A stretch of 64,000 bases of DNA from Actinomycetota bacterium (GTDB lineage: Bacteria; Actinomycetota; Acidimicrobiia; Acidimicrobiales; Ilumatobacteraceae), in the NCBI GenBank assembly GCA_009726095.1, contig WLMZ01000001.1, forward strand, positions 270 through 64,269, in the 5' to 3' direction. Below, one piece after another: positions 29,661-63,793 of this stretch (the first letter of the stretch is position 1; the number at the start of each line of letters is the position of its first letter). The position numbers and the translations under genes were made by a program. Under the pieces are notes generated by a model. It did no database searches and had not been told where the DNA came from. It saw only the letters and a program-made list of their open reading frames with translations.

Positions 29661-29709
29661 CAGGTGTTCTCCGCGATCGGTTCTGCGTCAAGGATTGAGA
29701 TGAGTCGGG

Positions 29710-31053
29710 CTACCACGATGACAGCGACGATTCAGACGAGTTCTGGGTGGGGGGTGGTGGCGCCATGCCCGGCGATTGGGGCCCGGAGGAGAGCAGATCG
29801 CCCTTGCGGACATACTGCGTAGGGTCGAGCTCGGTGATCGCCCGTTCCAGTTCCTCGAGGCGTTCGAGCTGAATGGCCGTGCTCACGTCCATGACTGTCT
29901 CGGTCACGGTTGCTTCGACCTCCGCGATGCGAACATTGATCTTGTCGAACTGCTCACCGGTACTCGACGCAACGCGTTCGAGTTCGATTCTGACCAGCAT
30001 CGCCTCACCGATCGCGCTCGACATCTGATCGCGCAGCTGGGAGATTGCCTCCTCATCGATCTTGCCGATCTGCTCGGCCACCTCGTTGATGCGCTGCATC
30101 ACGTCGAGGTTCTGATTCTCGAGTTCGATGACACGCTGCGACAGGGCGATGATGGCCTCGTCGATACCGCTGCTGATCCGGCCGACCGTGGCCTCCATGG
30201 CCGCCAGACGCGTGCCGGCGTGCTCGTTGACCCGCTCTTCCATGGCGAGCATGCGGTTGACGACCCGGGCATCGTTGTCCTCGATACGGCGACCGAAGTT
30301 CGTGGACTGTTCCACCACGAACTGACGCATCGCCACCATCGCCTCATCGGCACGCTGGCTGAGAGCCATGGTGCGCTCGTCGAGGCTGCTGCTAAGCACG
30401 CGACCGGAATCGTCGAGCCGCCGGTTGAACGCGGCGGTGGTGTCGTTCACGTGTTGCACAAGCGCCGACGACTGCTCGTCGAAGCGACGCGCTGCCCGCT
30501 GGAGTTCCTCGATACGGCTCGCCATCAGCTCGGTGCTGTGCTCGAAGCGCTGCTGGAGCGGCGCTGAGGCCGCTTCGATCTGGGCAGGCACTGCAAGCGC
30601 GACCTCGTCGGTGACCCGCTGGAGCCGACCTTCCACCTCGGTGAAACGCCAGTGCTGATTGGCTGCGAACTCGGTGAGTCGTTCCTCGAGTGCTGCCTGC
30701 AGGGCGTTCTCGTACTGCTCGTTGGTTTGCTGCGAGCGGGCGAGTTCGGCGCGTACCTGGTCCAATTGACCCTGAACGTGCGCCAGGACTTCAGCACGCC
30801 CGGCTTCGCCGGCCTGCTGAACTGCGTCGGCACGAGCGGCCATGGCCCCGAAATAGCGGGTGAGCTGATGCTCGACCGCTGCCAGGATTGCCTTGCTCGT
30901 TGCATCACCGCCGACAACCTGCGTCGAACTGAGCGACGACGCGGATGACGTCGGATCCGCGGATCCATCTGAATGTTGCTGCCTTGCCACGAAATAACTA
31001 TCGACAAGTTTGCCGCAATCTTGAGGAAGTTCCGATGGATTGGCCCCAGCCAC
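29710..31053 (-). CDS. long coiled-coil protein, first gene of the pilB-pilC operon (start uncertain)
   Basis: About 370 aa of heptad-like, E/R/Q/A-rich helix with no TM. The C-terminus is PPPPTQNSSESSLSSW. The first ~30 codons of the longest ORF (GTG 31053) have AT-rich third positions, so the true start may be GTG 30990 or ATG 30843. Confidence 0.6.
   Translation of the reverse strand: MAGANPSELPQDCGKLVDSYFVARQQHSDGSADPTSSASSLSSTQVVGGDATSKAILAAVEHQLTRYFGAMAARADAVQQAGEAGRAEVLAHVQGQLDQVRAELARSQQTNEQYENALQAALEERLTEFAANQHWRFTEVEGRLQRVTDEVALAVPAQIEAASAPLQQRFEHSTELMASRIEELQRAARRFDEQSSALVQHVNDTTAAFNRRLDDSGRVLSSSLDERTMALSQRADEAMVAMRQFVVEQSTNFGRRIEDNDARVVNRMLAMEERVNEHAGTRLAAMEATVGRISSGIDEAIIALSQRVIELENQNLDVMQRINEVAEQIGKIDEEAISQLRDQMSSAIGEAMLVRIELERVASSTGEQFDKINVRIAEVEATVTETVMDVSTAIQLERLEELERAITELDPTQYVRKGDLLSSGPQSPGMAPPPPTQNSSESSLSSW
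30953..30966. promoter_or_regulatory. perfect 14-bp palindrome GGATCCGCGGATCC
   Basis: Read directly. It lies in the low-GC 5' region of the coiled-coil/pilB operon, 156 nt from the divergent exonuclease ATG. Confidence 0.25.
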
Positions 31054-31121
31054 CGACCAGCGACGGACCGCTGCGGTACATCGCCACCCGGCGTGCGTGC
31101 GCCGCGCATATCGTGTCGCAC

Positions 31122-32003
31122 ATGAAGGTTCACCTCATCGACGGCACCTACGAGCTGTTCAGACAACACTTCGGGCAGGCGGCGCGCCACAGCGAGCCCG
31201 TGCCGAACGCCGCCACCATCGGGGTCCTGGCCTCGACACTGCAACTCGTTGCGCAGGGGGCCACGCACATCGGGGTGGCCAGCGACCACGTGATCGAGAG
31301 CTTCCGGAACGACCTGTGGCCCGGATACAAGACCAGTGCCGGAATGGCCGAGGAACTCCTCACCCAGATCCCTCTGATGGAGACCGCTCTCGAGGCGATG
31401 GGGATGACCACATGGGCAATGGTCGACCACGAGGCCGACGATGCGTTGGCCGCAGCGGCCATGGTGGCAGATGCCGACCCACGGGTGGAGCAGGTTCTGA
31501 TCATCACACCCGACAAAGATCTCGGGCAGTGCGTGCATGGCACCCGCGTCGTGCAATACGACCGCCGCAAGGACGAGATCATCGACGAGGCCGCTGTCAT
31601 CGCCCGCTTCGGCGTTGCGCCGTCATCGATTGCCGATTACCTGGCCCTGGTGGGCGACTCGGCCGACGGGTATCCGGGTCTGGCCGGGTGGGGGGCCAAG
31701 AGCGCCAGCGCCGTGCTGGCCCGGTTCGCCACCATCGAGGCCATCCCGGCATCGGCCGACGAATGGGGCATCGAGGGGCTCCGCGGTGCCGCCAAACTGG
31801 CGGCCTCGCTCGACAGCCAACGCGACCTCGCGCTGCTGTTCCGCCGTATCGCCACGGTCGTCACCGACATTGATGTGGGGGTCGTCGACGACTGGCGTTG
31901 GCGGGGGGTCACCCCGGCCTTCGCCGAACTGGCCGGGCAGATCGGCGCTGTTCACCTGATCGAACGAGCCGCACGGCTGGCGAAAAAGATCGACGCCCGC
32001 TGA
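31122..32003 (+). CDS. 5'-3' exonuclease (FEN/PIN_53EXO family)
   Basis: MKVHLIDGTYELFR, HEADDALAAAA, and LVGDSADGYPGLAGWGAKSA (H3TH). Confidence 0.85.
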   Translation: MKVHLIDGTYELFRQHFGQAARHSEPVPNAATIGVLASTLQLVAQGATHIGVASDHVIESFRNDLWPGYKTSAGMAEELLTQIPLMETALEAMGMTTWAMVDHEADDALAAAAMVADADPRVEQVLIITPDKDLGQCVHGTRVVQYDRRKDEIIDEAAVIARFGVAPSSIADYLALVGDSADGYPGLAGWGAKSASAVLARFATIEAIPASADEWGIEGLRGAAKLAASLDSQRDLALLFRRIATVVTDIDVGVVDDWRWRGVTPAFAELAGQIGAVHLIERAARLAKKIDAR

Positions 32004-32197
32004 CTGAGGTGACGGCCAGGTTCCCTGCGGCACACAGACGGTACCGTTGAAGGCTGCTACCTTCCGGTCCTGACCTGGTTCCCGGACGGCTGTTGCACAG
32101 GACCCGACCGCCACCTCACCCAACGGGCATCGAACGGTGTGGTCAGACTAGCCGGACGCTACCCTTCTCACACCTGCTGGGCTCATCGCCCGGCCGG

Positions 32198-32285
32198 GGA
32201 GGGTTGCGAGAGCGGCCGAATCGGCACGCCTGGAAAGCGTGTGAGGGGCAACCCTCCGTGGGTTCAAATCCCACACCCTCCGCCA
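32198..32285 (+). tRNA. tRNA-Ser (anticodon GGA)
   Basis: Hand-folded. Acceptor GGAGGGT/ACCCTCC, anticodon stem CACGC/GCGTG with loop CTGGAAA, long variable arm, T-loop GGTTCAAATCC, encoded CCA. Confidence 0.9.
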
Positions 32286-32797
32286 TGTTGGACCGTGTGG
32301 TCTCCGATGACGTCGCCGCAATGGCGTATGCACTGCACCAGGCGACGCTGGCACTTGCGCACGACGATGTACCCGTTGGTGCAGTGGTGGTGCGCAACGG
32401 CGTCGTGATCGCTGCCCGGCACAACGAGCGCGAACTCACCGGCGACCCCACCGCCCACGCCGAGATCCTGGCCATCCGCGACGCCGCCGAGCTCATCGGC
32501 CATTGGCGGCTCGAACAGTGCACGCTGTACGTCACCCTCGAGCCGTGCACCATGTGCGCCGGCGCGTTGGTCAACGCCCGCGTGCCGCGGGTCGTGTTCG
32601 GCGCCACCGACCCCAAAGCCGGAGCCGGAGGCAGCCTGTACAACGTGCTTGCCGACCCGCGGCTGAATCACCGTTGCGTTGTCGAGACCGGGGTGATGGC
32701 CGACGAGTGCGGAGCGATCCTGAAGACCTTTTTCGGGCTCCGACGGGCGGCCGGGCGGGCTTCAGCGGCGGCGAACGCCGTTGATGAGCCGGCGTAG
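32285..32797 (+). CDS. tadA: tRNA adenosine(34) deaminase
   Basis: HAEILAIR and TLEPCTMCAGAL (CDA zinc motifs). ATG 32285 shares its A with the tRNA 3' CCA. The alternative start is ATG 32321. Confidence 0.9.
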   Translation: MLDRVVSDDVAAMAYALHQATLALAHDDVPVGAVVVRNGVVIAARHNERELTGDPTAHAEILAIRDAAELIGHWRLEQCTLYVTLEPCTMCAGALVNARVPRVVFGATDPKAGAGGSLYNVLADPRLNHRCVVETGVMADECGAILKTFFGLRRAAGRASAAANAVDEPA

Positions 32798-34012
32798 AGC
32801 GCCTTTGCGGCTATCGCTGAGCGGCTGCCGGGCATCGGATTGAGCGTTCGGCTGGGCAGCGATCACCGGGCCTGCGGCCGCAGTGGTGGCCATCAAGTCA
32901 GCCATCGTTGGCCGGTCGGCACTGCCCGGTGCGGTGACGTGCACCGGACCGAAGTTGACGCCGGCACCTCCGAGAGCCGACTGCGTGGCGGCCTCGATCG
33001 CGGCGATCGCGTCGCGTACTGCGGCGGCAACATCTATGGGGACCGGGATGGAGTCGCTGTCGTTGTCGCTGTCGCTGGCGGGCTCAACGGAATCTCTGGT
33101 TGGTTGCTCGATGATCGGCGTCACGACCTGTACAGGCGCCGAGATCATCGAAACGAACAGCGGCGCAGTATCGGTGGCGGGGACAACGGGGTTCGACGCG
33201 GTAATCGGCTTGATCGGCACGAACGACTGCGTCGTCGAGATGCTTGCCAGGGGCGGCAGCGGCGCTGGCGCTGGCTCGGCGGGGCGCTGCTCGAGGGCCG
33301 CTGGCTGGGCCGGAGGCGTCACGACGGCGGGTTCGACCAACGGCGCCACCACCGGGAGAATACGGCCCGTGTAGGCGGCCGGTTTGGGCGGCAGCGTCGG
33401 TAGCGGCTGCAGGAGGGACGCTGGATCGACATCGACGACGTTGTCGCTGCGCGCGGGCACGGAGGCAGTCGGTGACGGTGGCTCCCACGGGCTCGCCGGC
33501 ACCGCACCGGCAGGTTCCGCTGCTGCGGATGCAACCGGGACGGACCAACGCACCACACCAGAAGGATGGTGCCGATACATGGTGATCGACGACGCCAGAA
33601 CCTGAAGTTGGGCGATCTCGGTCAGGGTCTGCTCGGTCATCAGCTCGAGTACCAGTTCCACCACGTCGCGCAGCACCGTGGTGTCACGGTCGAACAGGCG
33701 GCCAAGGTAGTCGACCCCGTTCAGCCGTACGATGCCCCGATCCAGTTGATCGGGGGTGATCGCGCCGGCCATCACCAAACGAGCGGCTAGCGGCTCGTCG
33801 GTGTCACGTTCGGCCAGGTAGACGACGCCCGAGTTGAGGTAGATCGTGATTGTCCCAGACAAGGCGGTGATCAACGACAGCTCGCCCGTCAGGCGAGCGT
33901 GACGCGCCTCGTCGATCAGTTCCCACGCAGCACGTGTCGGTTGCACCGTGGCTGGGTCGGGTTCGGCAGTGTGGCGTTCGGTGTCCATGGCATCATTCTG
34001 GGTCATGGTCAT
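32762..34012 (-). CDS. PATAN/DUF4388-like N-terminal domain protein with long Pro/Ala-rich C-terminal region
   Basis: ARLTGELSLITALSGTITIYLNSGVVYLAE...LVMAGAITPDQL resembles DUF4388. The remaining ~250 aa are low complexity. Its ATG overlaps the GTPase stop (ATGA). Confidence 0.5.
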   Translation of the reverse strand: MTMTQNDAMDTERHTAEPDPATVQPTRAAWELIDEARHARLTGELSLITALSGTITIYLNSGVVYLAERDTDEPLAARLVMAGAITPDQLDRGIVRLNGVDYLGRLFDRDTTVLRDVVELVLELMTEQTLTEIAQLQVLASSITMYRHHPSGVVRWSVPVASAAAEPAGAVPASPWEPPSPTASVPARSDNVVDVDPASLLQPLPTLPPKPAAYTGRILPVVAPLVEPAVVTPPAQPAALEQRPAEPAPAPLPPLASISTTQSFVPIKPITASNPVVPATDTAPLFVSMISAPVQVVTPIIEQPTRDSVEPASDSDNDSDSIPVPIDVAAAVRDAIAAIEAATQSALGGAGVNFGPVHVTAPGSADRPTMADLMATTAAAGPVIAAQPNAQSDARQPLSDSRKGALRRLINGVRRR

Positions 34013-34593
34013 CGGGTTCCTCCGTGACCGGACAGGGCGAAGTCGTTCGATTGGAGCAGGGCGACCAGCACCTCTGCCACCACCTCGCGACCCGAGGCAG
34101 GATCCACGAGTTGGCAGGGGATGACCGGCACCGACATCTTGGCACCGAGGGCATCGGCAACCCGGCGCGCCTGCGCAGGGTCGCCACAGCGGTTCACGGC
34201 GATGACCAATGGCGCCTCGAGGCCGGTCATCACCAGGGTCAACATCTGGCGTGCCTCGGCGAAGGTATCGGGGGCCTCGGCGTCGATCACGAAGGTCACA
34301 ACGTCGACATCGGCTTTCAGGATGTCGGTCATGAAGCGGAATCGATCCTGGCCGGGCGTTCCGAACATCAACAGGTGGATGGTCTCCTCGCCGTCCTCGA
34401 GACCGTCGAGGACGAACGTACCGAAGTCCATCGCCACGGTCGTGTTCTCCTTCACCTCGGCCTCGTCACCGGTGGTCGCCACCTCGGTGGTCACGACCGG
34501 GCTCTGCGAGATCGATTGGATCAACGATGTCTTGCCTGCAGCGAATGGGCCCGTAACCAGGATCTTGAAGGTGTGCTCTGTGAGATGCGACAC
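34009..34593 (-). CDS. small Ras-like GTPase of the MglA/CvnD (conservon) type
   Basis: G1 GPFAAGKTS and G3 FGTPGQDRF. 194 aa. A strong SD (GGGGAGG) precedes the GTG. Confidence 0.8.
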   Translation of the reverse strand: MSHLTEHTFKILVTGPFAAGKTSLIQSISQSPVVTTEVATTGDEAEVKENTTVAMDFGTFVLDGLEDGEETIHLLMFGTPGQDRFRFMTDILKADVDVVTFVIDAEAPDTFAEARQMLTLVMTGLEAPLVIAVNRCGDPAQARRVADALGAKMSVPVIPCQLVDPASGREVVAEVLVALLQSNDFALSGHGGTR

Positions 34594-34596
34594 GAT

Positions 34597-35034
34597 TCAG
34601 CGACCTCCCCGGACAACGGTGCGTAACGAGTCCGCACGGGACCTCACCTCGGAATTGATGTGATGCAGGTTGATGCTCGGACGGGCGAGCACCGTGAGCA
34701 CGCCCTCCTTGCCGACTGCGTACACGATCACAATGCCAGTGTCAGAGCGCACGATCACCTCTTCCAGTTCACGACCACCCACCATGCTCATCAGTTGTCC
34801 GGCCAGCCCCATGGTCGCGGCAATCATCGCCGACCGACTCGGGTCGTGCATCAGATCGTCCGAGTGCGCCAGGCTCCGACCGTCAGCACTGGCCACTGCC
34901 ACGCCAATCACACCGGCAACCGACCGGACAATCGAGTTCAGAATGGCCTGGGGATTCTGTCGCTGGTGAACCAACGACGCGACCGACACAGCAGCAGCGA
35001 GGGGGTTCGGGTTGATCATGATGAGATCCGTCAC
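34597..35034 (-). CDS. Roadblock/LC7 domain protein (MglB/CvnB-like)
   Basis: 145 aa. GVIGVAVASADGRSLAH...MIAATMGLAGQL...VIVRSDTGIVIVYAVG is the typical Roadblock pattern. Confidence 0.75.
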   Translation of the reverse strand: MTDLIMINPNPLAAAVSVASLVHQRQNPQAILNSIVRSVAGVIGVAVASADGRSLAHSDDLMHDPSRSAMIAATMGLAGQLMSMVGGRELEEVIVRSDTGIVIVYAVGKEGVLTVLARPSINLHHINSEVRSRADSLRTVVRGGR

Positions 35035-35162
35035 GGCGTAGGTATCGGCACGTCTTGGCCAACTCTTGAACCGGACTCCTGTCGAGTTCTCGGCCTCCGA
35101 ACCCAGATTTCGGGGCCCACACGGGTGCGAGAGTCCGTTTCGTTCCCGCTAGCCTGACGAGC

Positions 35163-51313: not shown

Positions 51314-52657
51314 TTACCCGCTGGCGGGGCGCACTTCCACCTGCGCCGAGCGCCCGGTGGCGCCAACGGTGATCCGCCAGCCCTCGATCGTCCACGAAGA
51401 TCCTGGGGTCGACAGCAACTGCAGGTGAGGCGCCGTGCTGCCGAGCGTGGCCTGCACGCGCGTTGCACCCGTGCACGGACCCGCTGTTGCGTCGCCCGTC
51501 GTGACCTCGGTCGCGGCATCGGTACCGAGTTCAGCGGCACACGCAGCAGGCGATTGGTCGATGTGATGCACCGCCAGCCCGGCGGCTGGAAGAAAGTCAT
51601 TGAAGCCGTCGGCTGTGAGGTATTCGACCGAGAGGAACGAGCCGTCTGCGATCGGCAGCACCAGCAAACGCAGCCCCTGCGCGCCGGTGGATGGCCAGAG
51701 ACTGAACGCGCCGCCTCCGGGCGCTGCAACCGCGAGATCGTCGGCGGTCAGCCAGCCGAGCGCCAATCGGTTGACGGCGAGCGTGTCCGGTCCATTCCGG
51801 CGAGCGGGCTCGGCGTCGCGCGGCGAGGCGCTGTTGCTCATCAGGTCGATGCCGCTCGCGTGCTGATCGGTGCTGCCGAAATCGCCGCTGTGCGGAAGGC
51901 CGAGCGTGTGCCCGATCTCGTGCTCAATCAGGTCGACCGCCGGGACCGCGCCCCAGTCGGGATGAAAGTCAGAAGCGCCGACGTACAGGGCACGGCGCGT
52001 CTGGCGGGCTGGGCAGAACTCCGTCGTGCAGGCCGAACCGGCCAGCCCCCACCCGCCCGGCTCGGTGGCGAGATGCTCGGCATTGGCCACCACCAACACC
52101 GCAGCCGTGGTGGCGCCGCTGGCATCGATGGCCCGCTGGAGACACTGGTCATGGGTTTCGCCCGGCGCCATGGTGAGCGTCAGCCCAGCGACGAAGTGCG
52201 GGTGATAGAGCCCGTGGGACAACGCCTCGAAGTACGGGGTAACGGTCGTGTCGAGTTTGGCGGCCACGTCGTCGGGCACCAGGTCCAGCCGCAACGGCAG
52301 CCGGCCGTAGATCGCGTCGGTGGTGTCGAGCGGCACGGCGCACACGAACACCTCGAACTGATCGTTGGTGGGCGCCGGCGAGCTGCCCAGGATCAGGCGC
52401 AGGCCAACCGGAAAGTCGGCTGATGCGCGCACGACCGAACCAACGGGGACGGTCAGGGTTCTGGAGTCGTCGTTGCTGCACGAGGCCCCGAACAGCGCGA
52501 TCGGGATACCGAGCAACGACACCGACGTCGCCCGGGAAAAGAATCCTGAACAATTCTTCAACAAACGCTCAAGTCGGCCACTGTGCCTGCCGATACACCA
52601 TCGGCAGCGTCGCGAATACGCGACCTGCGATGCTGCGACGGTTGGTCTCCCCTCCAT
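51314..52657 (-). CDS. secreted metzincin-type zinc metalloprotease (start uncertain)
   Basis: HEIGHTLGLPH (HExxHxxGxxH). Candidate starts are ATG 52657, or TTG near 52561-52564, which would give a lipoprotein-like signal (...LLGIPIALFGASC). Confidence 0.65.
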   Translation of the reverse strand: MEGRPTVAASQVAYSRRCRWCIGRHSGRLERLLKNCSGFFSRATSVSLLGIPIALFGASCSNDDSRTLTVPVGSVVRASADFPVGLRLILGSSPAPTNDQFEVFVCAVPLDTTDAIYGRLPLRLDLVPDDVAAKLDTTVTPYFEALSHGLYHPHFVAGLTLTMAPGETHDQCLQRAIDASGATTAAVLVVANAEHLATEPGGWGLAGSACTTEFCPARQTRRALYVGASDFHPDWGAVPAVDLIEHEIGHTLGLPHSGDFGSTDQHASGIDLMSNSASPRDAEPARRNGPDTLAVNRLALGWLTADDLAVAAPGGGAFSLWPSTGAQGLRLLVLPIADGSFLSVEYLTADGFNDFLPAAGLAVHHIDQSPAACAAELGTDAATEVTTGDATAGPCTGATRVQATLGSTAPHLQLLSTPGSSWTIEGWRITVGATGRSAQVEVRPASG

Positions 52658-56296: not shown

Positions 56297-57136
56297 CTAC
56301 TGCTCGGTGATGGTGACCTTGGTGATGGAGATCGGCTCCTTGGTGGGCACGCCATTGGATGCCGCAGGATCGGCTGCCGCCTCGAGGCCGCGCACCGAGG
56401 TGTCGAAGCCGTCGGTGACCTGACCGAGCAGGCTGTACTCGGCAGGCAGGGCCACGCCGGCGTCACCGGTGATCACGAAGAACTGGCTGTCGTTGGTGGT
56501 GGCGCCTGACGCCTTGGCCATGGCCACGGTGCCCAGGGCGTACTTGCCGCTCTTGGGCGCCTCCACGGGCACGGAGATGCCGGCGCCGCCCGAACCGGTA
56601 CCGGTGGGATCGCCACACTGCACCATGAAGTCCTTGATGGCGCGATGGCAGGGCGTGCCGTCGTAGAAGTGGTAACGAGCCAGGTACACGAACTGGTTCA
56701 CGTTCAGCGGCGAGTTCACAGCGTCGAGCGCAACCGTATAGCTGCCCTTGTTGGTCTCGATCAGCGCCGTGTAGGTCTTTCCAACGGCGATGCAACTGGG
56801 GGCGGCAGCCTTGAAGGCCACAACGCGGGGCGCAGTGCCATCAGCGGCGGGGCAGGGGTAAGCGCCTGACGCGTCGGTTGCAGGGGGCGTGCCGATGGTG
56901 GTGCTGGGCAGGCCGACGTCGGTGGCCACGGTCGTGGTGGTGGCCGACGTCGGGGTGCTCGAGGTGTCGCTGCCGAACAGGCGCACGAGCAGGAACACGG
57001 CCACGATGAGCGCCGGCACGCCGACACCGATCTGAAGGCCACGCTTTTTCGTCTTGGCCTTGCGAGCGTCGCGCGCAAGCTCCTCGAGCTTCAGCTGACG
57101 GTTGGCTTTCTGACGTTCACGCTTGTCGGTACCCAC
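56297..57136 (-). CDS. membrane-anchored cyclophilin-type peptidyl-prolyl isomerase
   Basis: Basic N-terminus plus TM. FHRAIKDFMVQCGDPTGTGSGG and SQFFV. Confidence 0.9.
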   Translation of the reverse strand: MGTDKRERQKANRQLKLEELARDARKAKTKKRGLQIGVGVPALIVAVFLLVRLFGSDTSSTPTSATTTTVATDVGLPSTTIGTPPATDASGAYPCPAADGTAPRVVAFKAAAPSCIAVGKTYTALIETNKGSYTVALDAVNSPLNVNQFVYLARYHFYDGTPCHRAIKDFMVQCGDPTGTGSGGAGISVPVEAPKSGKYALGTVAMAKASGATTNDSQFFVITGDAGVALPAEYSLLGQVTDGFDTSVRGLEAAADPAASNGVPTKEPISITKVTITEQ

Positions 57137-57213
57137 AAGGACGAGAGGCTACTCCGCGCGACCCCGTCATCGGGGGTCGACCCGCCCAACTCCGCAACGT
57201 CGTTCGTCAACTT

Positions 57214-57291
57214 ATGGAGAAGATCAACAAGGCCATGGGTCAGGCCATCGACAAGAACGGCTCAAGGAGACGACGTTGCGTGTCGATATGA
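57214..57291 (+). CDS. candidate 25-codon upstream ORF (MEKINKAMGQAIDKNGSRRRRCVSI)
   Basis: Read directly. The first 15 codons are GC3-rich, like genuine genes here. Its TGA overlaps ATG 57288 of the large ORF (ATGA). No obvious SD. Confidence 0.25.
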   Translation: MEKINKAMGQAIDKNGSRRRRCVSI

Positions 57292-60200
57292 ACAGCACAG
57301 CGTTCGCTCGCCGCGCACGACAGCACACGGATCAGCCAGAAGCGAGACAGCCACATCATGCACGTCGGGACACCATGAGCCAGCGGAAGAAATCAGATCC
57401 CCAGCCTCGCCACGGCATTGGGCTCGACGGCTTTGTGGATCCTCAGTCAACGTCGGTGCACCGGCTCGGCCAACAGTTCGGGCTGGTTGCGTTGGCCGTC
57501 GGCATTGCATATCTGGTGTGGCGCTGTGGTTGGTCGTTGCACGGCGCCGGGGCATCGGTTGCCTGGTGGTTGGCCGTTCCCGCCCTTGTCGTGGAGGTCA
57601 CTGGTCTGCTCTGCGTTGCCCTGCTCGTCTGGGCCCTGTGGCGTCAACCGGGCACGATGCCCAAGATCCACCTGGTCAACTCGTCGAAGCACGCCAACGA
57701 GCCGGACTACGACGTGGCGATCGTCGCCACCGGAAGATCACTGGAGGACCTGCGCGCCACACTGGTGGCGCTGCACCTCGATCCGCTCCGACCGGATGCG
57801 CTCGTCATCGATCATTCCCGACGGCTCGAAGTGGCCCGACTCGCCGCCGAGTTCGACGCCAATTTTCGGGTGCCCCACGCCAGCGACACCACCGGGCTCG
57901 CCACAGCGGCTGCAGCATCGCGCCGCCAGTTCATCCTCCTCCTCGATGCGGGGGACATCCTCGCTGCAGGGGCGGCACGATCGCTGGCCCAGTGGATGAC
58001 CAACGACCGCGTCGCCGCGGTGCAGGGTGTTGTCACCGCCTCGCATGGCGACTCGGCCGAGCACGGACCGGACGGCCGGCACGACCTGACCTTCGAGCGC
58101 ATCGGGCTGAACCCGGCCCTCGGTGCACGCGGCACGGGCATCGTGACGGGCAGCGGGGCGCTCATCCGCCGTTCGGCCCTCGAGGGCATCAACCTGACCG
58201 ATCGCCCCCGGTACCGGGTGCTGTGGGAACTCATGCCGCAATTCGCCACCCGGGGCACGCTGGTCATCGCCGCATCCGGCCCGGCAGTGGTCGCCGAGAA
58301 GCCGCTGACATCGGCTCCCGCCGTCGCCGCCGATCGACGCAGCCGGGCCGACGCTGGTTGGCACCTGCTGACCGGTTCGCATGGTGCCCTGCGGGCCCGT
58401 GGGCTGCACCGGCGCGACCGCATGGCGCTCGCTGCCTGGGCCGTCCGTTCGATCGACGGATTGCGCCGTGCCGGCTTGGCTGGCGTCGTGCTGGGTGCGT
58501 TGTTGGCCGGCCGCGCTCCGTTCGCCGCCGACCCATCAGCACTCCTGTATTTGTGGTTACCGGCCTTTGTGCTCGCCTCGGTTTCGCTGGCGCTGTTGTC
58601 CGGTGGCGCCCTTCGACCCGGAGATCGACTGCGCGGCTCGGTACGGGCAGTCGGGTTACCGGTCGGTTTCGTGGTGGCGATCAGCTCGGTGCTCGTGATT
58701 CGCGGCATCTCCGATCGCTTCACCCATGCCCTGCACCCGCTCGATCACAACGTCCAGATCGGCCTCTCGGCGGTTTCCCTGTGGCTGCTGGCGGGTTCGC
58801 TGGATTCTCTGCGGCTGCTGGCCCGCCGACGTCAGAACCGGCGAGCGATGCGCCTCGGGGCGTCGGGTACCGGGCGTCTTGGCGAACTCGACGTGTACGT
58901 CTCGGATCTCACGATGCTCGGTGCCGGCCTGCTGGCCGATCACGCTGTCGATGTTGGCGAGCACCTGCAGCTGTCGTTCTCGGTGCCCAGCGAAACGGGC
59001 ATCACCTCGCTCCAGGTGCCCTGCACCGTGCGCAATGTTCGCCCCGACCTGCTCAGCGCCTGGCGCATCGGCGTCGAATTCAACGACGTCGATTCCTACG
59101 CGCTCAACACGCTGGCTGAGTGCTGCGCCGTGCTCCCCGCTCGTGGCGTGTTCGCCGGCGAGCAACCCCTTTCCGGGCAACTCGACGACAACCCCTCGGC
59201 CAAACTCGGACCTCGCCGGATCGCCCTGCAGGTTGCCGCGCTGCTTGCACTCGCCGGGGTCGTCTCCTCCACGGCACCAATCAACGCAGAGGCCAGTGCT
59301 CCATCCATCCGTTTGGTCTCTGGGGTCGTGGTCGACACGAGTGATCCGCCCGTGCCTCCGTCAGCCACCACGACCGCCGGCGCTCCCGGCAGCGCGGGTC
59401 CCGACGCCACGACCGTTGTCGGGATCGGCACCGGCACCGACGACACGTCGCCCAGTGGCTCATCACCAACCGACACATCACCAACCGGCACATCACCCAC
59501 CGACACGGTCCCTGACGGCTCCTCCCCTGCGGAGCCAGCGACGCCAACCGACCCAGCGGCGACGGTCCCTACGTCCTCGACGATGCCGTCCGGATCCGGT
59601 GATGCTGGCGGCCCCGGCATGAGCGGGATCACCGTGATCGGCGTGTGCTCGTTGGATGCCGGCGATGACCTGACGTTCGGGACCAGCGACGACACCTACG
59701 GCGCAACCGTGAGCACCATCACCGATGCCCTCGGGCACTACACGCTCGCCCTCGACGGTCTGGCCTGCTGGGTCTCGATCGAGCCACCGGCCCTGCCCTT
59801 GCGGGCAGCATTCTCCACCGGTGGACCGTCGATCGGCGAAGCAATGCTGGTCGACTTCGGCCACCCCGGAGCCGTCTCCATGCGGCCCGTGCTCGTGGAT
59901 CGGCCGATGAACCCCGTCTCCGTGTCCCCAGCGGCCGCCGGGTCAGAAACCGCCGTGCTCGGCGACCGGGTCTGGATCGATCAGAACTCCGACGGCACCC
60001 AACAGCCGAACGAGGCCGGGGTGGCGGGCGCCACCGTGACCCTGTACGGCGCAACGGGTACAACGCTCGGCACCACGAGCACCGGCACCGACGGCAGGTT
60101 CAGCTTCACCCGGCTCGCCAGCGGGATGTACAGCCTGGGCGTGTCGAACCTTCCTGCTGGTCTGCGGGTGCCTCACGTGGATCCGCTCACCTCGCGGACC

Positions 60201-60449
60201 CCGCTGGTGGCAGTGCGCGACGGAGAGCAGATGTCGAGCGCTGACGTCGGCGTTGTCCAGACCGCTGCTGGCGCTCTCGAACCCATCGTGTTGCCGACGC
60301 CCAATGCACATCAGCTCAACGTGCCCGGTGGATCGAGCCCGTCGGAGCTGCCGACACTGCTGATCATCCTGATGGCGGCGTTCCTGGGGGGCAGCGTGCT
60401 GTTCGCGTCAACGCAACCTATTCGGGGTCGTCGTCCGATTTCGCGATGA
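57288..60449 (+). CDS. multidomain membrane protein: BcsA-like GT2 region (degenerate motifs) + PilZ + extracytoplasmic SdrD-B-like domains + C-terminal TM anchor
   Basis: TM pair, then a GT2-like region (DYDVAIVATG...LLLDAGD...GSGALIRRSALEG), more TM segments, and PilZ motifs RQNRR and DLTMLG. After an internal TM come a P/T/S linker, DRVWIDQNSDGTQQPNEAGVAGATVTLY...GTDGRFSF and a terminal TM plus RGRR. Start is TTG 57276, ATG 57288 or ATG 57375. Confidence 0.65.
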   Translation: MNSTAFARRARQHTDQPEARQPHHARRDTMSQRKKSDPQPRHGIGLDGFVDPQSTSVHRLGQQFGLVALAVGIAYLVWRCGWSLHGAGASVAWWLAVPALVVEVTGLLCVALLVWALWRQPGTMPKIHLVNSSKHANEPDYDVAIVATGRSLEDLRATLVALHLDPLRPDALVIDHSRRLEVARLAAEFDANFRVPHASDTTGLATAAAASRRQFILLLDAGDILAAGAARSLAQWMTNDRVAAVQGVVTASHGDSAEHGPDGRHDLTFERIGLNPALGARGTGIVTGSGALIRRSALEGINLTDRPRYRVLWELMPQFATRGTLVIAASGPAVVAEKPLTSAPAVAADRRSRADAGWHLLTGSHGALRARGLHRRDRMALAAWAVRSIDGLRRAGLAGVVLGALLAGRAPFAADPSALLYLWLPAFVLASVSLALLSGGALRPGDRLRGSVRAVGLPVGFVVAISSVLVIRGISDRFTHALHPLDHNVQIGLSAVSLWLLAGSLDSLRLLARRRQNRRAMRLGASGTGRLGELDVYVSDLTMLGAGLLADHAVDVGEHLQLSFSVPSETGITSLQVPCTVRNVRPDLLSAWRIGVEFNDVDSYALNTLAECCAVLPARGVFAGEQPLSGQLDDNPSAKLGPRRIALQVAALLALAGVVSSTAPINAEASAPSIRLVSGVVVDTSDPPVPPSATTTAGAPGSAGPDATTVVGIGTGTDDTSPSGSSPTDTSPTGTSPTDTVPDGSSPAEPATPTDPAATVPTSSTMPSGSGDAGGPGMSGITVIGVCSLDAGDDLTFGTSDDTYGATVSTITDALGHYTLALDGLACWVSIEPPALPLRAAFSTGGPSIGEAMLVDFGHPGAVSMRPVLVDRPMNPVSVSPAAAGSETAVLGDRVWIDQNSDGTQQPNEAGVAGATVTLYGATGTTLGTTSTGTDGRFSFTRLASGMYSLGVSNLPAGLRVPHVDPLTSRTPLVAVRDGEQMSSADVGVVQTAAGALEPIVLPTPNAHQLNVPGGSSPSELPTLLIILMAAFLGGSVLFASTQPIRGRRPISR

Positions 60450-61053
60450 GGTAGCCAATCGCCCGCTCGGCTTTTGGATAGCGGTGCACGAGGCGCCAGA
60501 ACTCCGGGGAATGATCACCCACCTCAAGATGCGCGAGCTCGTGGACGATGACGTAATCGATCACCCAGTCGGGAAATCGGGCGAGGCGCGTACTGATCCG
60601 GATGAGACCGGTGGTCGGGGTACACGAGCCCCACCGCTTCAACATGTCGTCAGACCAGCGAATCTCGCGGGCGCGTGGCAGATCGTGGCGACGCGAGAGC
60701 GTCAGCGCCCGGTCGACGAGATCGAGTCGATCTGCCGACAGCTTGCGACGGTAACGCCCGCTCATCACGTCGACCCAGTGATCCTGCTCGGCGCGGCTCA
60801 TCCATGTGGGCACCACCACCTTCAGCACGCCGCCGGTGAGTTGTGCCCCGACCGTGCGTTTGCGTCGGGCCGACCGTTCGATCTCGACAACGAAGGGTTC
60901 GTCGAAATCGGGCACGACGTTCGGGGAGGGTTCAACAGGGGCCGACGGCGCCACGAGATCAGCTGCCGGTGGTGGTGTCCGTGCGACAGCACCAACGACG
61001 TCGTCGTCGAAGAGACGCAGTTCGCCGCTCATGGGATCACGCTCGTCACTCAC
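60418..61053 (-). CDS. YgjP/DUF45 (M48/WLM-like) metal-dependent hydrolase
   Basis: YVIVHELAHLEVGDHSPEFW (HExxH). Confidence 0.8.
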   Translation of the reverse strand: MSDERDPMSGELRLFDDDVVGAVARTPPPAADLVAPSAPVEPSPNVVPDFDEPFVVEIERSARRKRTVGAQLTGGVLKVVVPTWMSRAEQDHWVDVMSGRYRRKLSADRLDLVDRALTLSRRHDLPRAREIRWSDDMLKRWGSCTPTTGLIRISTRLARFPDWVIDYVIVHELAHLEVGDHSPEFWRLVHRYPKAERAIGYLIAKSDDDPE

Positions 61054-61727: not shown

Positions 61728-61970
61728 GTGGCTATTCTGCGACTGTTTGCATCGGCTCGCGAGGCAGCCGGCACCGGACGCGACGACGTGCCGGGGCACA
61801 CGGTCGGCGAGCTCCTCGCCACCGCGCAGGCTCGCTACGGTGAGGCATTCGCAGCGGTGCTGAGCAGCTGCCGAATCTGGGTCAACGGAGAATCGGCAAC
61901 CGCCGATACTGTCATTTCTGCCCGTGACGAAGTGGCTGTGCTGCCACCCGTGTCGGGTGGAGCGGTCTGA
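61728..61970 (+). CDS. MoaD/ThiS-family sulfur-carrier-like protein
   Basis: 80 aa with a beta-grasp-like pattern. It ends ...VLPPVSGGAV, i.e. Gly-Gly followed by two residues. Confidence 0.6.
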   Translation: MAILRLFASAREAAGTGRDDVPGHTVGELLATAQARYGEAFAAVLSSCRIWVNGESATADTVISARDEVAVLPPVSGGAV

Positions 61971-61979
61971 GGAGAATTC

Positions 61980-62486
61980 ATGGACAACCCAACATCTGAC
62001 CCGTCAGCTGACCCATCGTCGCTGAGCCTTGCCGACCTGCGCGCGCTGCGGGCCAAGCTGCAGGCCGACGACGATGCCATCAGCTACGTGCGCCGTCTCG
62101 TGCAGGGACGGCTCGATCTGGTGCTGGCCGAGCAGCAGCGACGAGTCAGCGGCAACGAACGTGATGTATCCGAGTACCTACCCGCCATCTTGGGGCGCCA
62201 GCTCACCGGTGGTCCGGCGCGACCGCCGCGACCCACCGAGGACGCCAGCGAGCACCCGCTGGCCATCGAGCTCGACGAGCTCTGCCGCGGTCTTGGCGCC
62301 AACCACGTGACAGAACTCGATGCAACGCAATTGTCTGCGCTGTCCTCGGGCCTCCAGGAGTTCGAGCAGGCGCGCTCACAGGAGCGACGCGATCTGTTCG
62401 GTCGTCTCGATGCACTCACCGCCGAGCTCGTGCGCCGCTACCGCGACGGCGAGGCCAGCGTCGACGGCTTACTCGCCGACGGGTGA
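61980..62486 (+). CDS. RsiG-like helical protein with c-di-GMP-binding-type motif
   Basis: Residues 31-46, DDAISYVRRLVQGRLD, fit [E/D]x3Sx2Rx3Qx3D. Residues 129-144, EQARSQERRDLFGRLD, fit at 4 of 5 positions. Confidence 0.5.
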   Translation: MDNPTSDPSADPSSLSLADLRALRAKLQADDDAISYVRRLVQGRLDLVLAEQQRRVSGNERDVSEYLPAILGRQLTGGPARPPRPTEDASEHPLAIELDELCRGLGANHVTELDATQLSALSSGLQEFEQARSQERRDLFGRLDALTAELVRRYRDGEASVDGLLADG

Positions 62487-62581: not shown

Positions 62582-63793
62582 GTGCAACGGCTCGCTGTGC
62601 TCTCTCTCCACACCTCGCCCCTGGCCCAGCCCGGGTCGGGCGACAGTGGCGGCATGAACGTGTATGTGCGCGAGCTGGTCTCCGCCCTGGCCCAGGCTGG
62701 CGTCGACTGCACCACCTACACCAGGGCCTCGCGGCCCGGGCTGCCCGAGGTCGTGCAGGTCGAACCGGGCCACCGCGTCGTGCACCTGCCGGCCGGCCCG
62801 TTCGACCTGGCCAAAGAAGACCTGCCCCATGTCGTGACCGAGTTCGGTGATGCGGTCATCGACCACCTCAAGAACGGTCCGGGGGCCGACGTGGTCCACG
62901 CCAACTACTGGCTCAGCGGCCTCGTGGCGCACCGGGTGAAGCACGAGCTCGAACTGCCCTTCGTCAGCACCTTCCACACCCTGGCGCGCGTCAAGGCCGA
63001 GGGTGGCGACCCCGAGCCGGCGTGGCGCGAACGGGCCGAGGCCGAGATCATCAACTGTGCCGACGCCATCTGCGTCAGCTGCACGGAGGAGGAAAGCCAG
63101 TTCCGGCGCCTCTACGGCGACCCGCAGGGTCGCATCGAGATCGTCTCGCCGGGCGTGGAGCACGCGTTCTTCGCCCCCGGCGACAAGCGCGGGGCGCGGC
63201 ACGCCCTGGGGCTCGGCTCGGGTCCGGTGCTGTTGTTCGTCGGCCGCATCCAGCCGTTGAAGGGACTCGATGTTGCGGTACGGGCGCTGAGCGAGCTGCA
63301 CCGACCGGATGCGCGCCTGCTCGTGGTCGGGGGCGCCAGCGGGCTCGAGGGCAGTACCGAGGTTGCCCGAATCAGCACCATCATCGATTCGCTCGGCCTG
63401 CGCGACCAGGTGATCTTCGTCGACCCACAGCCCCACCACATCCTGTCCACCTACTACCGGGCGGCCGATGTGGTCGTGGTGCCCAGCCGCAGCGAGAGCT
63501 TCGGCCTGGTCGCGCTCGAAGCCGCTGCGTGCGGCACTCCCGTGGTCGCCAGCGCCGTTGGTGGCTTGCTCACCCTTGTCGATGACGGCCTCACCGGCTA
63601 TCTCGTCGCTGGCCGCGACCCCTCGCACTTCGCATCGCGCATCGCCACCATTCTCAACGACCCCGCACTCGCCACCTCCATGAGCGTGCGTGCCGCCGAC
63701 CGCGCCCGCCGTTACACATGGAGCTTTGCCGCCGCACGACTGCGCCGGGTGTACTCCGACCTCGCAGTGCGCGAGCTCGTTGCCTGCTCGTAG
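62582..63793 (+). CDS. mshA: D-inositol-3-phosphate glycosyltransferase (mycothiol biosynthesis)
   Basis: LSLHTSPLAQPGSGDSGGMNVYVRELV is the MshA N-terminal signature. C-terminal GT4 EX7E region (PSRSESFGLVALEAAACGTPVVA). Confidence 0.9.
   Translation: MQRLAVLSLHTSPLAQPGSGDSGGMNVYVRELVSALAQAGVDCTTYTRASRPGLPEVVQVEPGHRVVHLPAGPFDLAKEDLPHVVTEFGDAVIDHLKNGPGADVVHANYWLSGLVAHRVKHELELPFVSTFHTLARVKAEGGDPEPAWRERAEAEIINCADAICVSCTEEESQFRRLYGDPQGRIEIVSPGVEHAFFAPGDKRGARHALGLGSGPVLLFVGRIQPLKGLDVAVRALSELHRPDARLLVVGGASGLEGSTEVARISTIIDSLGLRDQVIFVDPQPHHILSTYYRAADVVVVPSRSESFGLVALEAAACGTPVVASAVGGLLTLVDDGLTGYLVAGRDPSHFASRIATILNDPALATSMSVRAADRARRYTWSFAAARLRRVYSDLAVRELVACS

Follow-up and report, generated by a model that had tools for sequence, protein, structure and literature searches.

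BcsA, the PilZ-type cellulose synthase, is the founding member of the PilZ proteins and serves as the paradigm of polysaccharide synthesis gated by cyclic di-guanosine monophosphate (c-di-GMP). The signature of processive beta-glycosyltransferases includes the catalytic base of the TED motif, Q(Q/R)xRW, HAKAGN and the FxVTxK gating loop, which coordinates uridine diphosphate (UDP) and is released by c-di-GMP (PMC8892547). We analyzed a 64,000-nucleotide stretch of an Ilumatobacteraceae genome (Actinomycetota, Acidimicrobiia; assembly GCA_009726095.1, contig WLMZ01000001.1, positions 270 to 64,269 of the forward strand), hereafter the window, within which all coordinates are given. It holds a gene at 57375-60449 for a BcsA-like protein that lacks this signature, retains PilZ and continues into an extracytoplasmic region. 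An earlier note on the stretch had proposed that this pseudo-synthase is a non-catalytic scaffold gated by c-di-GMP and presenting an adhesin-like ectodomain. Every element of the idea that could be tested held, the scaffold with its adhesin-like ectodomain staying a prediction from sequence, and the idea is better founded now because the catalytic motifs are lost family-wide, because this loss correlates with a membrane-spanning tail after PilZ, and because the glycosyltransferase (GT)-like domain is under constraint. Our preferred reading, held with moderate confidence, is that the protein would act as a non-catalytic, BcsA-derived c-di-GMP receptor carrying a surface stalk.

The gene occupies a plus-strand open reading frame (ORF) that is open throughout 57123-60449, with a frame of 3.1 kb running without interruption in DNA of 68% GC. 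A database protein of 1024 residues (P0001) is 100% identical to its product; residue numbers used here count from an upstream ATG at 57288 (1053 residues) and not from 57375. The parts follow one another as a pair of transmembrane (TM) helices, a GT2-like domain, four TM helices, PilZ, a signal-peptide-like TM helix, a Pro/Thr linker, a beta module with a Cys pair, an SdrD-B domain and a C-terminal TM helix with an RGRR tail. By hydropathy and AlphaFold2 (AF2) modeling, TM helices span approximately residues 56-85, 93-118, 386-407, 416-437, 456-479, 487-512, 642-662, and 1021-1041, and by the positive-inside rule residues 670-1018 are outside and the GT-like and PilZ parts cytoplasmic. The predicted local distance difference test score (pLDDT) averages 71.5 over the model and exceeds 90 in the GT-like and PilZ parts. 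All five parts that had been described as combined in one continuous ORF were recovered by the ORF list, Pfam, hydropathy, and AF2. The features of the gene are as follows.

57375..60449, plus strand: coding sequence of the BcsA-like pseudo-synthase/PilZ/SdrD-B protein, 1024 residues from the conserved ATG (MSQRKK).
57453..57647, plus strand: N-terminal TM pair, residues 56-120, equivalent to BcsA TM3-TM4 (hydropathy; AF2 helices 52-85 and 93-116; hidden Markov model (HMM) alignment to E. coli BcsA from residue 202).
57693..58373, plus strand: GT2-like domain of GT-A fold, residues 136-362, without the catalytic signature (sub-threshold Pfam GT2 matches, pLDDT >90, motif mapping).
58374..58823, plus strand: interface helix and four TM helices, residues 363-512, equivalent to BcsA TM5-TM8 (AF2 helices, Foldseek match to 4p00_A, 65% mean pairwise identity).
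58614..58634, plus strand: RPGDRLR motif in a short cytosolic loop between the equivalents of BcsA TM6 and TM7, where BcsA holds interface helix 3 and the FxVTxK loop.
58824..59153, plus strand: PilZ domain, residues 513-622, with RxxxR (R518...R522) and D540-L-T542-M-L-G545 (Pfam PF07238, AF2).
59208..59294, plus strand: the seventh TM helix of the protein (TM7), resembling an internal signal peptide, with n-region PRR, h-region IALQVAALLALAGVV and c-region SSTAPINAEA (hydropathy); a possible signal-peptidase site is predicted at A669|S670.
59295..59627, plus strand: disordered linker rich in Pro, Thr, and Ser, residues 670-780 (sequence; pLDDT <50; 35% identity).
59628..59792, plus strand: small beta module, residues 781-835, with two invariant cysteines (C787, C827) and an acidic DAGxDxxFGTxDDxYG loop (invariant columns; pLDDT ~80).
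59952..60263, plus strand: beta-sandwich of SdrD-B/CnaB type, residues 889-992 (Pfam PF17210, PDB sequence matches, Foldseek).
60342..60446, plus strand: C-terminal TM anchor and basic cytoplasmic tail, residues 1019-1053 (...PIRGRRPISR) (hydropathy; AF2 helix 1021-1041).

Descent from BcsA was established at the level of family profile and predicted fold. Four Pfam GT2 families match residues 181-341, all below threshold (Glyco_tranf_2_3 at 20.9 bits with a cut-off of 27), and NCBIfam holds no family for the core, giving only far-sub-threshold SdrC/SdrD matches. A PDB search with the single sequence likewise returned only the B domains of SdrD and UafA, and the BcsA link required a family profile: built from 32 members, it matches BcsA of E. 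coli (E=2e-12) and R. sphaeroides (E=1e-11) from the TM pair through the GT domain to the TM core. Foldseek with the AF2 model found BcsA 4p00_A as the best PDB entry (E=5e-23, 739 aligned columns, TM-score 0.59 on the target), followed by plant CesA and hyaluronan synthases. On profile and model together, BcsA homology and fold, as suggested in the earlier note, can be regarded as settled. When the family profile was run in an exhaustive HMM search, 2,425 relatives were obtained at E<=1e-3, of which 295 had E<1e-30; residue counts given below refer to 194 aligned relatives.

For motif mapping, the protein was aligned with E. coli BcsA and with canonical relatives from actinobacteria (P0137, P0148, P0164, P0165, P0175), which read VLDDG, HAKAGN, LDADHV, VQTPH, FWCGS, AED, QRxRW, and FKVTPK at the respective positions. 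The window protein departs from them as follows.

DDG: VIDHS (IDH), with the first Asp, D175, kept.
HAKAGN: ASDTTGL, with a deletion of 3 residues.
DxDH: LDAGDI (D220-A-G222-D223), the second Asp being replaced by Gly.
QTPH: VQGVV.
FFCGS: VTGSG.
TED: RVL (R310-V311-L312).
QRxRW: DRRSR (D349-R-R-S-R353), conservation being limited to R350 at the non-essential second position.
FxVTxK gating loop: missing, RPGDRLR being followed by a gap of about 35 residues.

The strings that had earlier been read as remnants of HAKAGN and QRxRW, HASDTTGL and DRRSRADAGW, lie at residues 197-204 and 349-358. Alignment confirmed that HAKAGN, TED, and QRxRW are eroded, with TED left without an acidic counterpart; the D,D,D,QxxRW residues expected of an ordinary synthase are not intact, and the missing gating loop is a further change that the earlier note did not contain. 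G222 replaces the second Asp of DxD in 168 of the 194 relatives. No acidic residue is universal at this site: D220 is replaced by N, H, G, or A within the clade of the window protein, and in 39 relatives D223 is exchanged for Gln. No nearby register has a conserved acidic residue at the tip of the finger helix. D305 of 'LTD' was considered as a substitute for TED and rejected: TD 304-305 aligns to an E/D five residues upstream of TED and is unconserved, so that no register supplies a catalytic base. The DS..H..RHE..F block of the GT-like domain is common to the canonical relatives and is thus inherited rather than a new catalytic set. As judged by alignment, four defining features of processive synthases are absent, namely the Asp pair for UDP/Mg, TED, Q(Q/R)xRW, and HAKAGN together with the gating loop. 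Database entries for relatives are labeled hypothetical, 'GT2 family' or 'cellulose synthase (UDP-forming)', and automatic annotation as 'glycosyltransferase family 2' or 'cellulose synthase (UDP-forming)' is probably wrong.

At the place of the gating loop, R443, G445, D446, R447, and R449 of RPGDRLR are invariant in the family alignment (A2), with the Gly found in 167 and the Asp in 159 of the 194 members. Shorter family members without ectodomain (e.g. P0022-P0046) keep a segment of about 33 residues here (…RRAPIMTPHxLQHGG…; A2 columns 520-555), which is deleted in the clade of the window protein. PIMTPH of these short forms bears a faint resemblance to FxVTxK. The pattern suggests, as far as an alignment can, that the gating loop was eroded in steps as the family evolved.

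Unlike the catalytic signature, the PilZ part is kept. Pfam PF07238 matches residues 513-613 (E=2.8e-10, 40.9 bits against a cut-off of 22.5), and AF2 models six strands (523-598) and a C-terminal helix (603-622) with pLDDT ~90. R518 is found in 173, R522 in 177, D540 in 174, and G545 in 178 of the 194 relatives. DLTMLG (540-545) fits the refined motif [D/N]hSxxG (10.1101/814665) with Thr replacing Ser; 118 of the 194 relatives have T at this position and 38 have S. Of the near-canonical motifs and PilZ domain described in the earlier note, DLTMLG and the fold stood, whereas the register of RxxxR moved from RQNRR to R518-R-A-M-R522 by alignment to BcsA. From these motifs we infer that the domain is competent to bind c-di-GMP.

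To place the protein in its family, a word-indexed search was performed that returned 49 relatives, about 20 with the full architecture (37–62% identity) and about 28 short forms of 670-708 residues, which end after two TM helices and lack the ectodomain. The named source genomes are all metagenome-assembled genomes of Acidimicrobiia (Ilumatobacteraceae, Acidimicrobiaceae, Acidimicrobiales). Gene order is shared by the window, a long-form (P0002) and a short-form genome (P0025): cyclophilin (minus strand), pseudo-synthase (plus), YgjP-like (minus), His_Phos_1 (minus), ThiS (plus), RsiG (plus). Since long and short forms are thus positional orthologues, the ectodomain represents an insertion into the loop of a C-terminal TM hairpin or, in the short forms, a loss from it.

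Full-length orthologues have a mean pairwise identity of 53% in the GT-like domain, 65% in the TM core (residues 363-512, the best-conserved segment), 57% in PilZ, 62% in the Cys module and 52% in SdrD-B, compared with 20–35% in the linkers; the GT-like domain is therefore not decaying. These values bear on the explanation that we are looking at an artefact or a dying gene, that is, a chimeric assembly or frameshift joining two genes, or a neutrally drifting pseudogene. Eroded catalytic motifs and sub-threshold GT2 scores in Pfam would suit it. The uninterrupted 3.1 kb frame in GC-rich DNA argues against it, as do domains conserved at 53–65% next to fast-changing linkers, a conserved promoter upstream (see below), and the recurrence of one architecture in the roughly 20 full-length orthologues, drawn from NCBI, ENA, JGI, and Logan assemblies and sharing a syntenic locus, and in many more distant members. 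An artefactual fusion near 59200, which the earlier note had asked to be excluded, was not upheld by these independent assemblies, and the whole explanation is extremely improbable and effectively refuted.

Loss of the signature goes along with the shape of the tail. QxxRW is missing from 160 of the 168 relatives in which the GT and the PilZ region are both covered; in most of these 160, PilZ is followed by 100 to ~4,850 residues, as a rule containing one to three TM segments. The remaining eight keep QxxRW and have tails of 17-77 residues without TM segment, like classical BcsA. Tails of eleven long members were scanned with Pfam; nine contain beta-sandwich arrays (up to 7 SdrD_B or 8 CarboxypepD_reg domains, DUF7507, macroglobulin-like domains), two have no match, and no enzyme or BcsB domain was found in any of the eleven. 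Very large ectodomains on a core of dead synthase and PilZ are seen in P0183 (5415 residues), P0092 (2646), P0106 (2236), P0102 (2145), and P0166 (2077). It seems to be the length of the stalk that has varied in the evolution of the family.

The main rival to a receptor is a working, non-canonical membrane glycosyltransferase or polymer translocase, whose remodelled site would make or export exopolysaccharide under c-di-GMP control, with an ectodomain acting like BcsB to guide the polymer through the wall. The retained BcsA fold and TM core speak for such an activity, as does a GT-like domain as conserved as PilZ, with D175, G222-D223, FER, and GSGALIRR kept. CarboxypepD_reg-type domains occur in relatives, and such folds are often carbohydrate-binding. 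Moreover, a core with a tail-anchored ectodomain mirrors BcsA-BcsB, which is sometimes a single chain (PMC8892547), and co-regulation with type IV pilus genes, described below, would suit an exopolysaccharide. Against this stand the joint disappearance of the TED base, of Q, R, and W in Q(Q/R)xRW, of HAKAGN and of the UDP-coordinating gating loop (for their roles, see PMC8892547), the absence of any DxD-site acid conserved across relatives, and the inheritance of the DS..H..RHE..F block from canonical proteins. The ectodomain shows no homology to BcsB in Pfam, and short forms do without it. In addition, no bcsB, bcsZ, bcsC, or other exopolysaccharide genes are adjacent in the window locus or in two relatives, where the neighbors are cyclophilin, YgjP-like, His_Phos_1, ThiS, RsiG, and a GT4 glycosyltransferase. 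Given the combined loss of signature and gating loop, the lack of a universal acid and the lack of polysaccharide genes, we disfavor an active synthase or translocase and consider it unlikely.

Under our preferred reading of a non-catalytic receptor, the region after PilZ would be the part displayed at the surface. An internal signal-like TM helix, an ectodomain of CnaB/SdrD-B type, and a C-terminal anchor had been proposed for it and were borne out by Pfam, PDB search, hydropathy, and Foldseek. SdrD_B (PF17210) matches residues 890-961 with E=4e-19, above the gathering score; a PDB sequence search identified SdrD B domains at E=6.6e-20, and Foldseek with a separate model of the ectodomain (776-1000) found SdrD 8vdk (E=2e-7), UafA, CnaB2, and Gram-positive pilins. 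Of the two beta-sandwich segments that had been described, the second is therefore an SdrD-B domain by its Pfam match, whereas the first gave only a weak profile match: as a second SdrD-B domain it is not demonstrable (hhalign over 18 columns, probability 22%), and only the T-D-x-x-G-x-[FY] hallmark is common to both. No match to an MSCRAMM A region was found, and the NCBIfam SdrC/SdrD models reach 40 bits with cut-offs of 1700-2500. The sequence 'LPTP' (1002-1005) followed by the TM helix and RGRR was considered as a sortase or exosortase sorting signal and rejected, being 17 residues away from the helix. Having neither an A region nor an LPXTG signal, the protein is not an MSCRAMM. The C-terminal TM helix is conserved in long forms and corresponds to the second arm of the TM hairpin in short forms.

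TM7 raises the question of processing. Signal peptidase I might cut after A669, yielding a core that ends in TM7 and a tail-anchored surface protein (670-1053), the two being held together by TM helices; this would fit a catalytic core as well as a non-catalytic one. The n-h-c layout of the helix is textbook-like (PRR / IALQVAALLALAGVV / SSTAPINAEA), all 17 long forms have Ala at -1 (A669) and A, G, or V at -3, and a Pro is found at -5 or -6. BcsB offers a precedent as a signal-peptide-bearing, tail-anchored partner of BcsA that can be part of a single chain (PMC8892547). However, short forms carry a similar ASA motif in spite of having only about 8-10 residues between their two TM helices, which weakens the case for cleavage at A669|S670, as small residues may merely mark the end of the helix, and internal signal-anchor helices usually stay uncleaved. 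We regard cleavage as a possibility, though a doubtful one.

Upstream of the gene, a block of DNA is conserved that reads as a promoter, and elements of the same type recur at other genes in the window. These features are listed here.

57247..57289, plus strand: conserved non-coding block with a promoter of sigma-WhiG (sigma-28 family) type, sequence CTCAAGGAGACGACGTTGCGTGTCGATAT.
57262-57265 and 57282-57289, plus strand: -35 TCAA and -10 GTCGATAT, separated by a 16-nucleotide spacer (TCAA-N16-GTCGATAT).
61980-62486, plus strand: rsiG-like gene, 168 residues (Pfam RsiG PF22802, E=2.4e-26), with a perfect TCAA-N16-GCCGATA at 61882-61908.
27891-29660, minus strand: PilB-type T2SSE ATPase with MshEN domain, preceded by an ORF with a WhiG-type motif at its head (31024-30999).
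34600-35034 and 34012-34593, minus strand: Roadblock/LC7 protein and Ras-like GTPase, a pair reminiscent of MglB/MglA.

The published WhiG2 consensus is T(A/C)AA-N16-GCCGATAA, with an essential central CGA (PMC12871210). In the window, the -10 element ends 85 nucleotides before the ATG at 57375, within the distance applied in that study (<200 bp from the start codon), and its CGA core is intact. The block is invariant across orthologues whose proteins share only about 60% identity. A WhiG-type motif was found in 32 of 38 orthologous loci, 25-150 nucleotides upstream of the alignment start (background 0.048 per 480 nucleotides); these 32 include short forms with a diverged spacer. Within the window, TCAA-N15/16-GYCGATA has 5 matches compared with 0.03 expected from dinucleotide shuffles. 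By its pattern of conservation, the upstream motif is a promoter-type footprint, and this predicted promoter of sigma-WhiG type ahead of a pseudo-synthase gene, together with its conservation, is new here. A scan for sigma-70 promoters and terminators in 57000-60700 gave nothing. Rfam returned nothing at E<=1 for the 5' leader (57100-57450), making a known riboswitch unlikely.

This block also bears on the start codon. The ATG at 57375 (MS[RQ]...) is kept in all orthologues and the frame upstream of it is not; orthologue DNA at 57247-57289 is almost perfectly conserved, but the gap to the conserved ATG varies by non-multiples of three and the upstream frames disagree. Conservation at the DNA level together with such indels shows the block to be non-coding. 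Translation probably starts at ATG 57375 (MSQRKK), in preference to 57288, where the earlier note had begun the ORF: orthologues conserve that stretch as DNA and with frame-breaking indels. The same indels led us to reject a TTG at 57276, which has AAGGAG 6 nucleotides upstream and matches the MRVD start annotated in P0002/P0005; this apparent ribosome-binding site is a piece of the -35 region, CTCAAGGA.

Directly ahead of the -35 element, ATCGACAAGAAC (12 bases at 57247-57261, plus strand) is invariant across long-form orthologues. Its ATCGACA forms a 7-nucleotide inverted repeat with TGTCGAT overlapping the -10 element, imperfect in orthologues having GCCGAT. The repeat could be the operator of an additional regulator.

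RsiG is the anti-sigma factor of WhiG and is armed by c-di-GMP. The RsiG-like protein of the window is probably of the twin-motif form, as two stretches are matched by Pfam RsiG, and its gene is syntenic with the pseudo-synthase in two relatives. The WhiG-type motif lies 72 nucleotides upstream of rsiG, within the 3' end of a ThiS-like ORF, which suggests, at the sequence level, WhiG-dependent expression of its own anti-sigma factor. In the minus-strand region, the MshEN domain of the ATPase belongs to a known c-di-GMP-binding type. The whole region 27891-35069 (minus strand) has the appearance of a type IV pilus or motility-linked cluster and includes two ORFs (447 and 416 residues) without Pfam match. 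A WhiG-type motif at 35069-35043 (minus strand) ends 9 nucleotides before the GTG of the Roadblock gene, so that its transcript would be leaderless or near-leaderless. Genes for type IV pili and for c-di-GMP turnover make up the WhiG regulon of Rubrobacter, which is unicellular (PMC8325347). By its motif, the pseudo-synthase gene appears to belong to the same c-di-GMP/WhiG circuit as rsiG and the type IV pilus-linked genes.

A fifth, perfect motif (TCAA-N16-GCCGATA, 52569-52595, plus strand) lies in an apparent gap of about 300 nucleotides between a minus-strand gene of unknown function (375 residues) and a minus-strand Leu/Phe-tRNA transferase gene, with no obvious plus-strand gene downstream; it could drive a small unannotated ORF, a small RNA, or an antisense transcript. 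Divergent to the pseudo-synthase, a cyclophilin-type prolyl isomerase (56297-57136, minus strand) is adjacent in long- and short-form genomes alike; its N-terminal TM anchor and Thr/Pro-rich linker make it a probable extracytoplasmic foldase. An MshA-like GT4 gene follows rsiG at 62582-63793 (plus strand), and relatives carry a HTH_31 regulator and a prepilin-type (N_methyl) gene between rsiG and GT4 (L001 15176-16152), which are absent from the window.

The receptor that we favor would work as follows. As a descendant of the PilZ-type cellulose synthase BcsA, the protein has kept the GT-A fold, the six-helix membrane core and PilZ, and has given up the residues for processive transfer and the gating loop. 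After PilZ the chain would cross the membrane on the signal-peptide-like helix, display the Pro/Thr linker, a disulfide-type beta module and a CnaB/SdrD-B stalk outside, and re-enter via the C-terminal anchor. With c-di-GMP bound to PilZ, the PilZ/TM8 hinge would take up a new position, as would the invariant RPGDR loop that replaces the gating loop, and the resulting change in the membrane core would reach the tethered stalk or membrane partners, rendering a surface property such as attachment or aggregation c-di-GMP-dependent. Transcription would probably be driven by WhiG and restrained by the c-di-GMP-armed anti-sigma factor RsiG, encoded three genes downstream, placing the protein in one regulon with the type IV pilus-linked genes.

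Several observations weigh against parts of this model. The GT-A fold is under purifying selection with D175, the GD pair (G222/D223), FER, and GSGALIRR conserved, and might bind a nucleotide-sugar or catalyze in an unorthodox way. Short-form orthologues are wholly without ectodomain, and the function of the core therefore cannot depend on it. AF2 places TM7 and TM8 with low confidence (pLDDT 45-67), providing no structural support for coupling. With respect to regulation, the -10 element has one mismatch (GTCGA instead of GCCGA), no WhiG gene was identified in the 64-kb window, and co-regulation with type IV pilus genes suits a real exopolysaccharide synthase equally well.

More tentatively, and with well under an even chance of being right, the family can be viewed as a radiation of Acidimicrobiia cellulose-synthase descendants converted to transmembrane receptors, in which an inside-out switch acting on a CnaB/SdrD-B stalk would be built from PilZ, the RPGDR loop, and a dead GT pocket and be wired into an RsiG/WhiG/type IV pilus circuit. 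Stalks of one to several dozen repeats would then confer c-di-GMP-controlled adhesion on these monoderm bacteria, and c-di-GMP would govern transcription and activity of the switch alike. If the receptor reading is true, this large family, with sensor and membrane scaffold retained and the chemistry given up, would represent a new class of pseudoenzyme c-di-GMP effector, a natural experiment on how PilZ is coupled to a membrane core without catalysis, and a first handle on c-di-GMP outputs in the Acidimicrobiia, which are abundant and largely uncultured in freshwater, marine, and soil habitats. With the conserved WhiG-type promoter, a PilZ surface protein would join the RsiG-WhiG regulon, otherwise known from spores, flagella, and type IV pili.

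Literature searches found no paper on this architecture, in line with the earlier view that the domain combination is uncharacterized as far as known. Among described proteins, BcsA (R. sphaeroides 4HG6/4P00; E. coli 7LBY/9FMV) has the TM pair, GT-A domain, interface helix, four TM helices, and C-terminal PilZ in the same order, with RxxxR and DxSxxG-type motifs at matching places. The window protein differs in lacking HAKAGN, the second Asp of DxD, the TED base, QxxRW, the FxVTxK loop, and TM1-2, and in adding two TM helices after PilZ with an ectodomain between them; moreover, no bcsB, bcsZ, or bcsC lies near its gene, and its host belongs to the monoderm Acidimicrobiia. The closest relatives with intact motifs are the canonical actinobacterial BcsA-PilZ proteins used above for motif mapping. 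They have the TM pair, GT2 domain, TM core, PilZ, and DS..H..RHE block in common with it, but end 26-52 residues past the approximate PilZ boundary, with neither TM segment nor ectodomain. BcsA-BcsB fusions of AcsAB type likewise combine a synthase-like core with an extracytoplasmic part on a C-terminal TM anchor, joined by a signal-peptide-like helix (PMC8892547). The core of the window protein, however, lacks the catalytic motifs, and BcsB consists of jellyroll carbohydrate-binding and flavodoxin-like domains without homology to the Pro/Thr linker, Cys-pair module, and CnaB/SdrD-B domain found here. With the B repeats of SdrD, UafA, and CnaB the protein shares a bona fide SdrD_B domain (residues 889-992), including the D-x-N-x-D-G...E loop. 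In adhesins, such B domains form a stalk that projects the binding region. Unlike SdrD-type adhesins, the window protein has no A region, Ser-Asp repeats, or LPXTG, and is tethered by TM helices on one or both sides and fused to a predicted cytoplasmic c-di-GMP sensor. A last comparison concerns LapD, a transmembrane c-di-GMP receptor made of catalytically dead enzyme domains that relays c-di-GMP outward to control a surface adhesin; its GGDEF-EAL domains are degenerate, and it further has a HAMP relay and traps the protease LapG through a periplasmic domain. GGDEF-EAL, HAMP, and the LapG trap are all absent from the window protein and the two are non-homologous, so that the likeness is one of mechanism only; by this analogy, the window protein resembles inside-out receptors of the LapD type in its logic.

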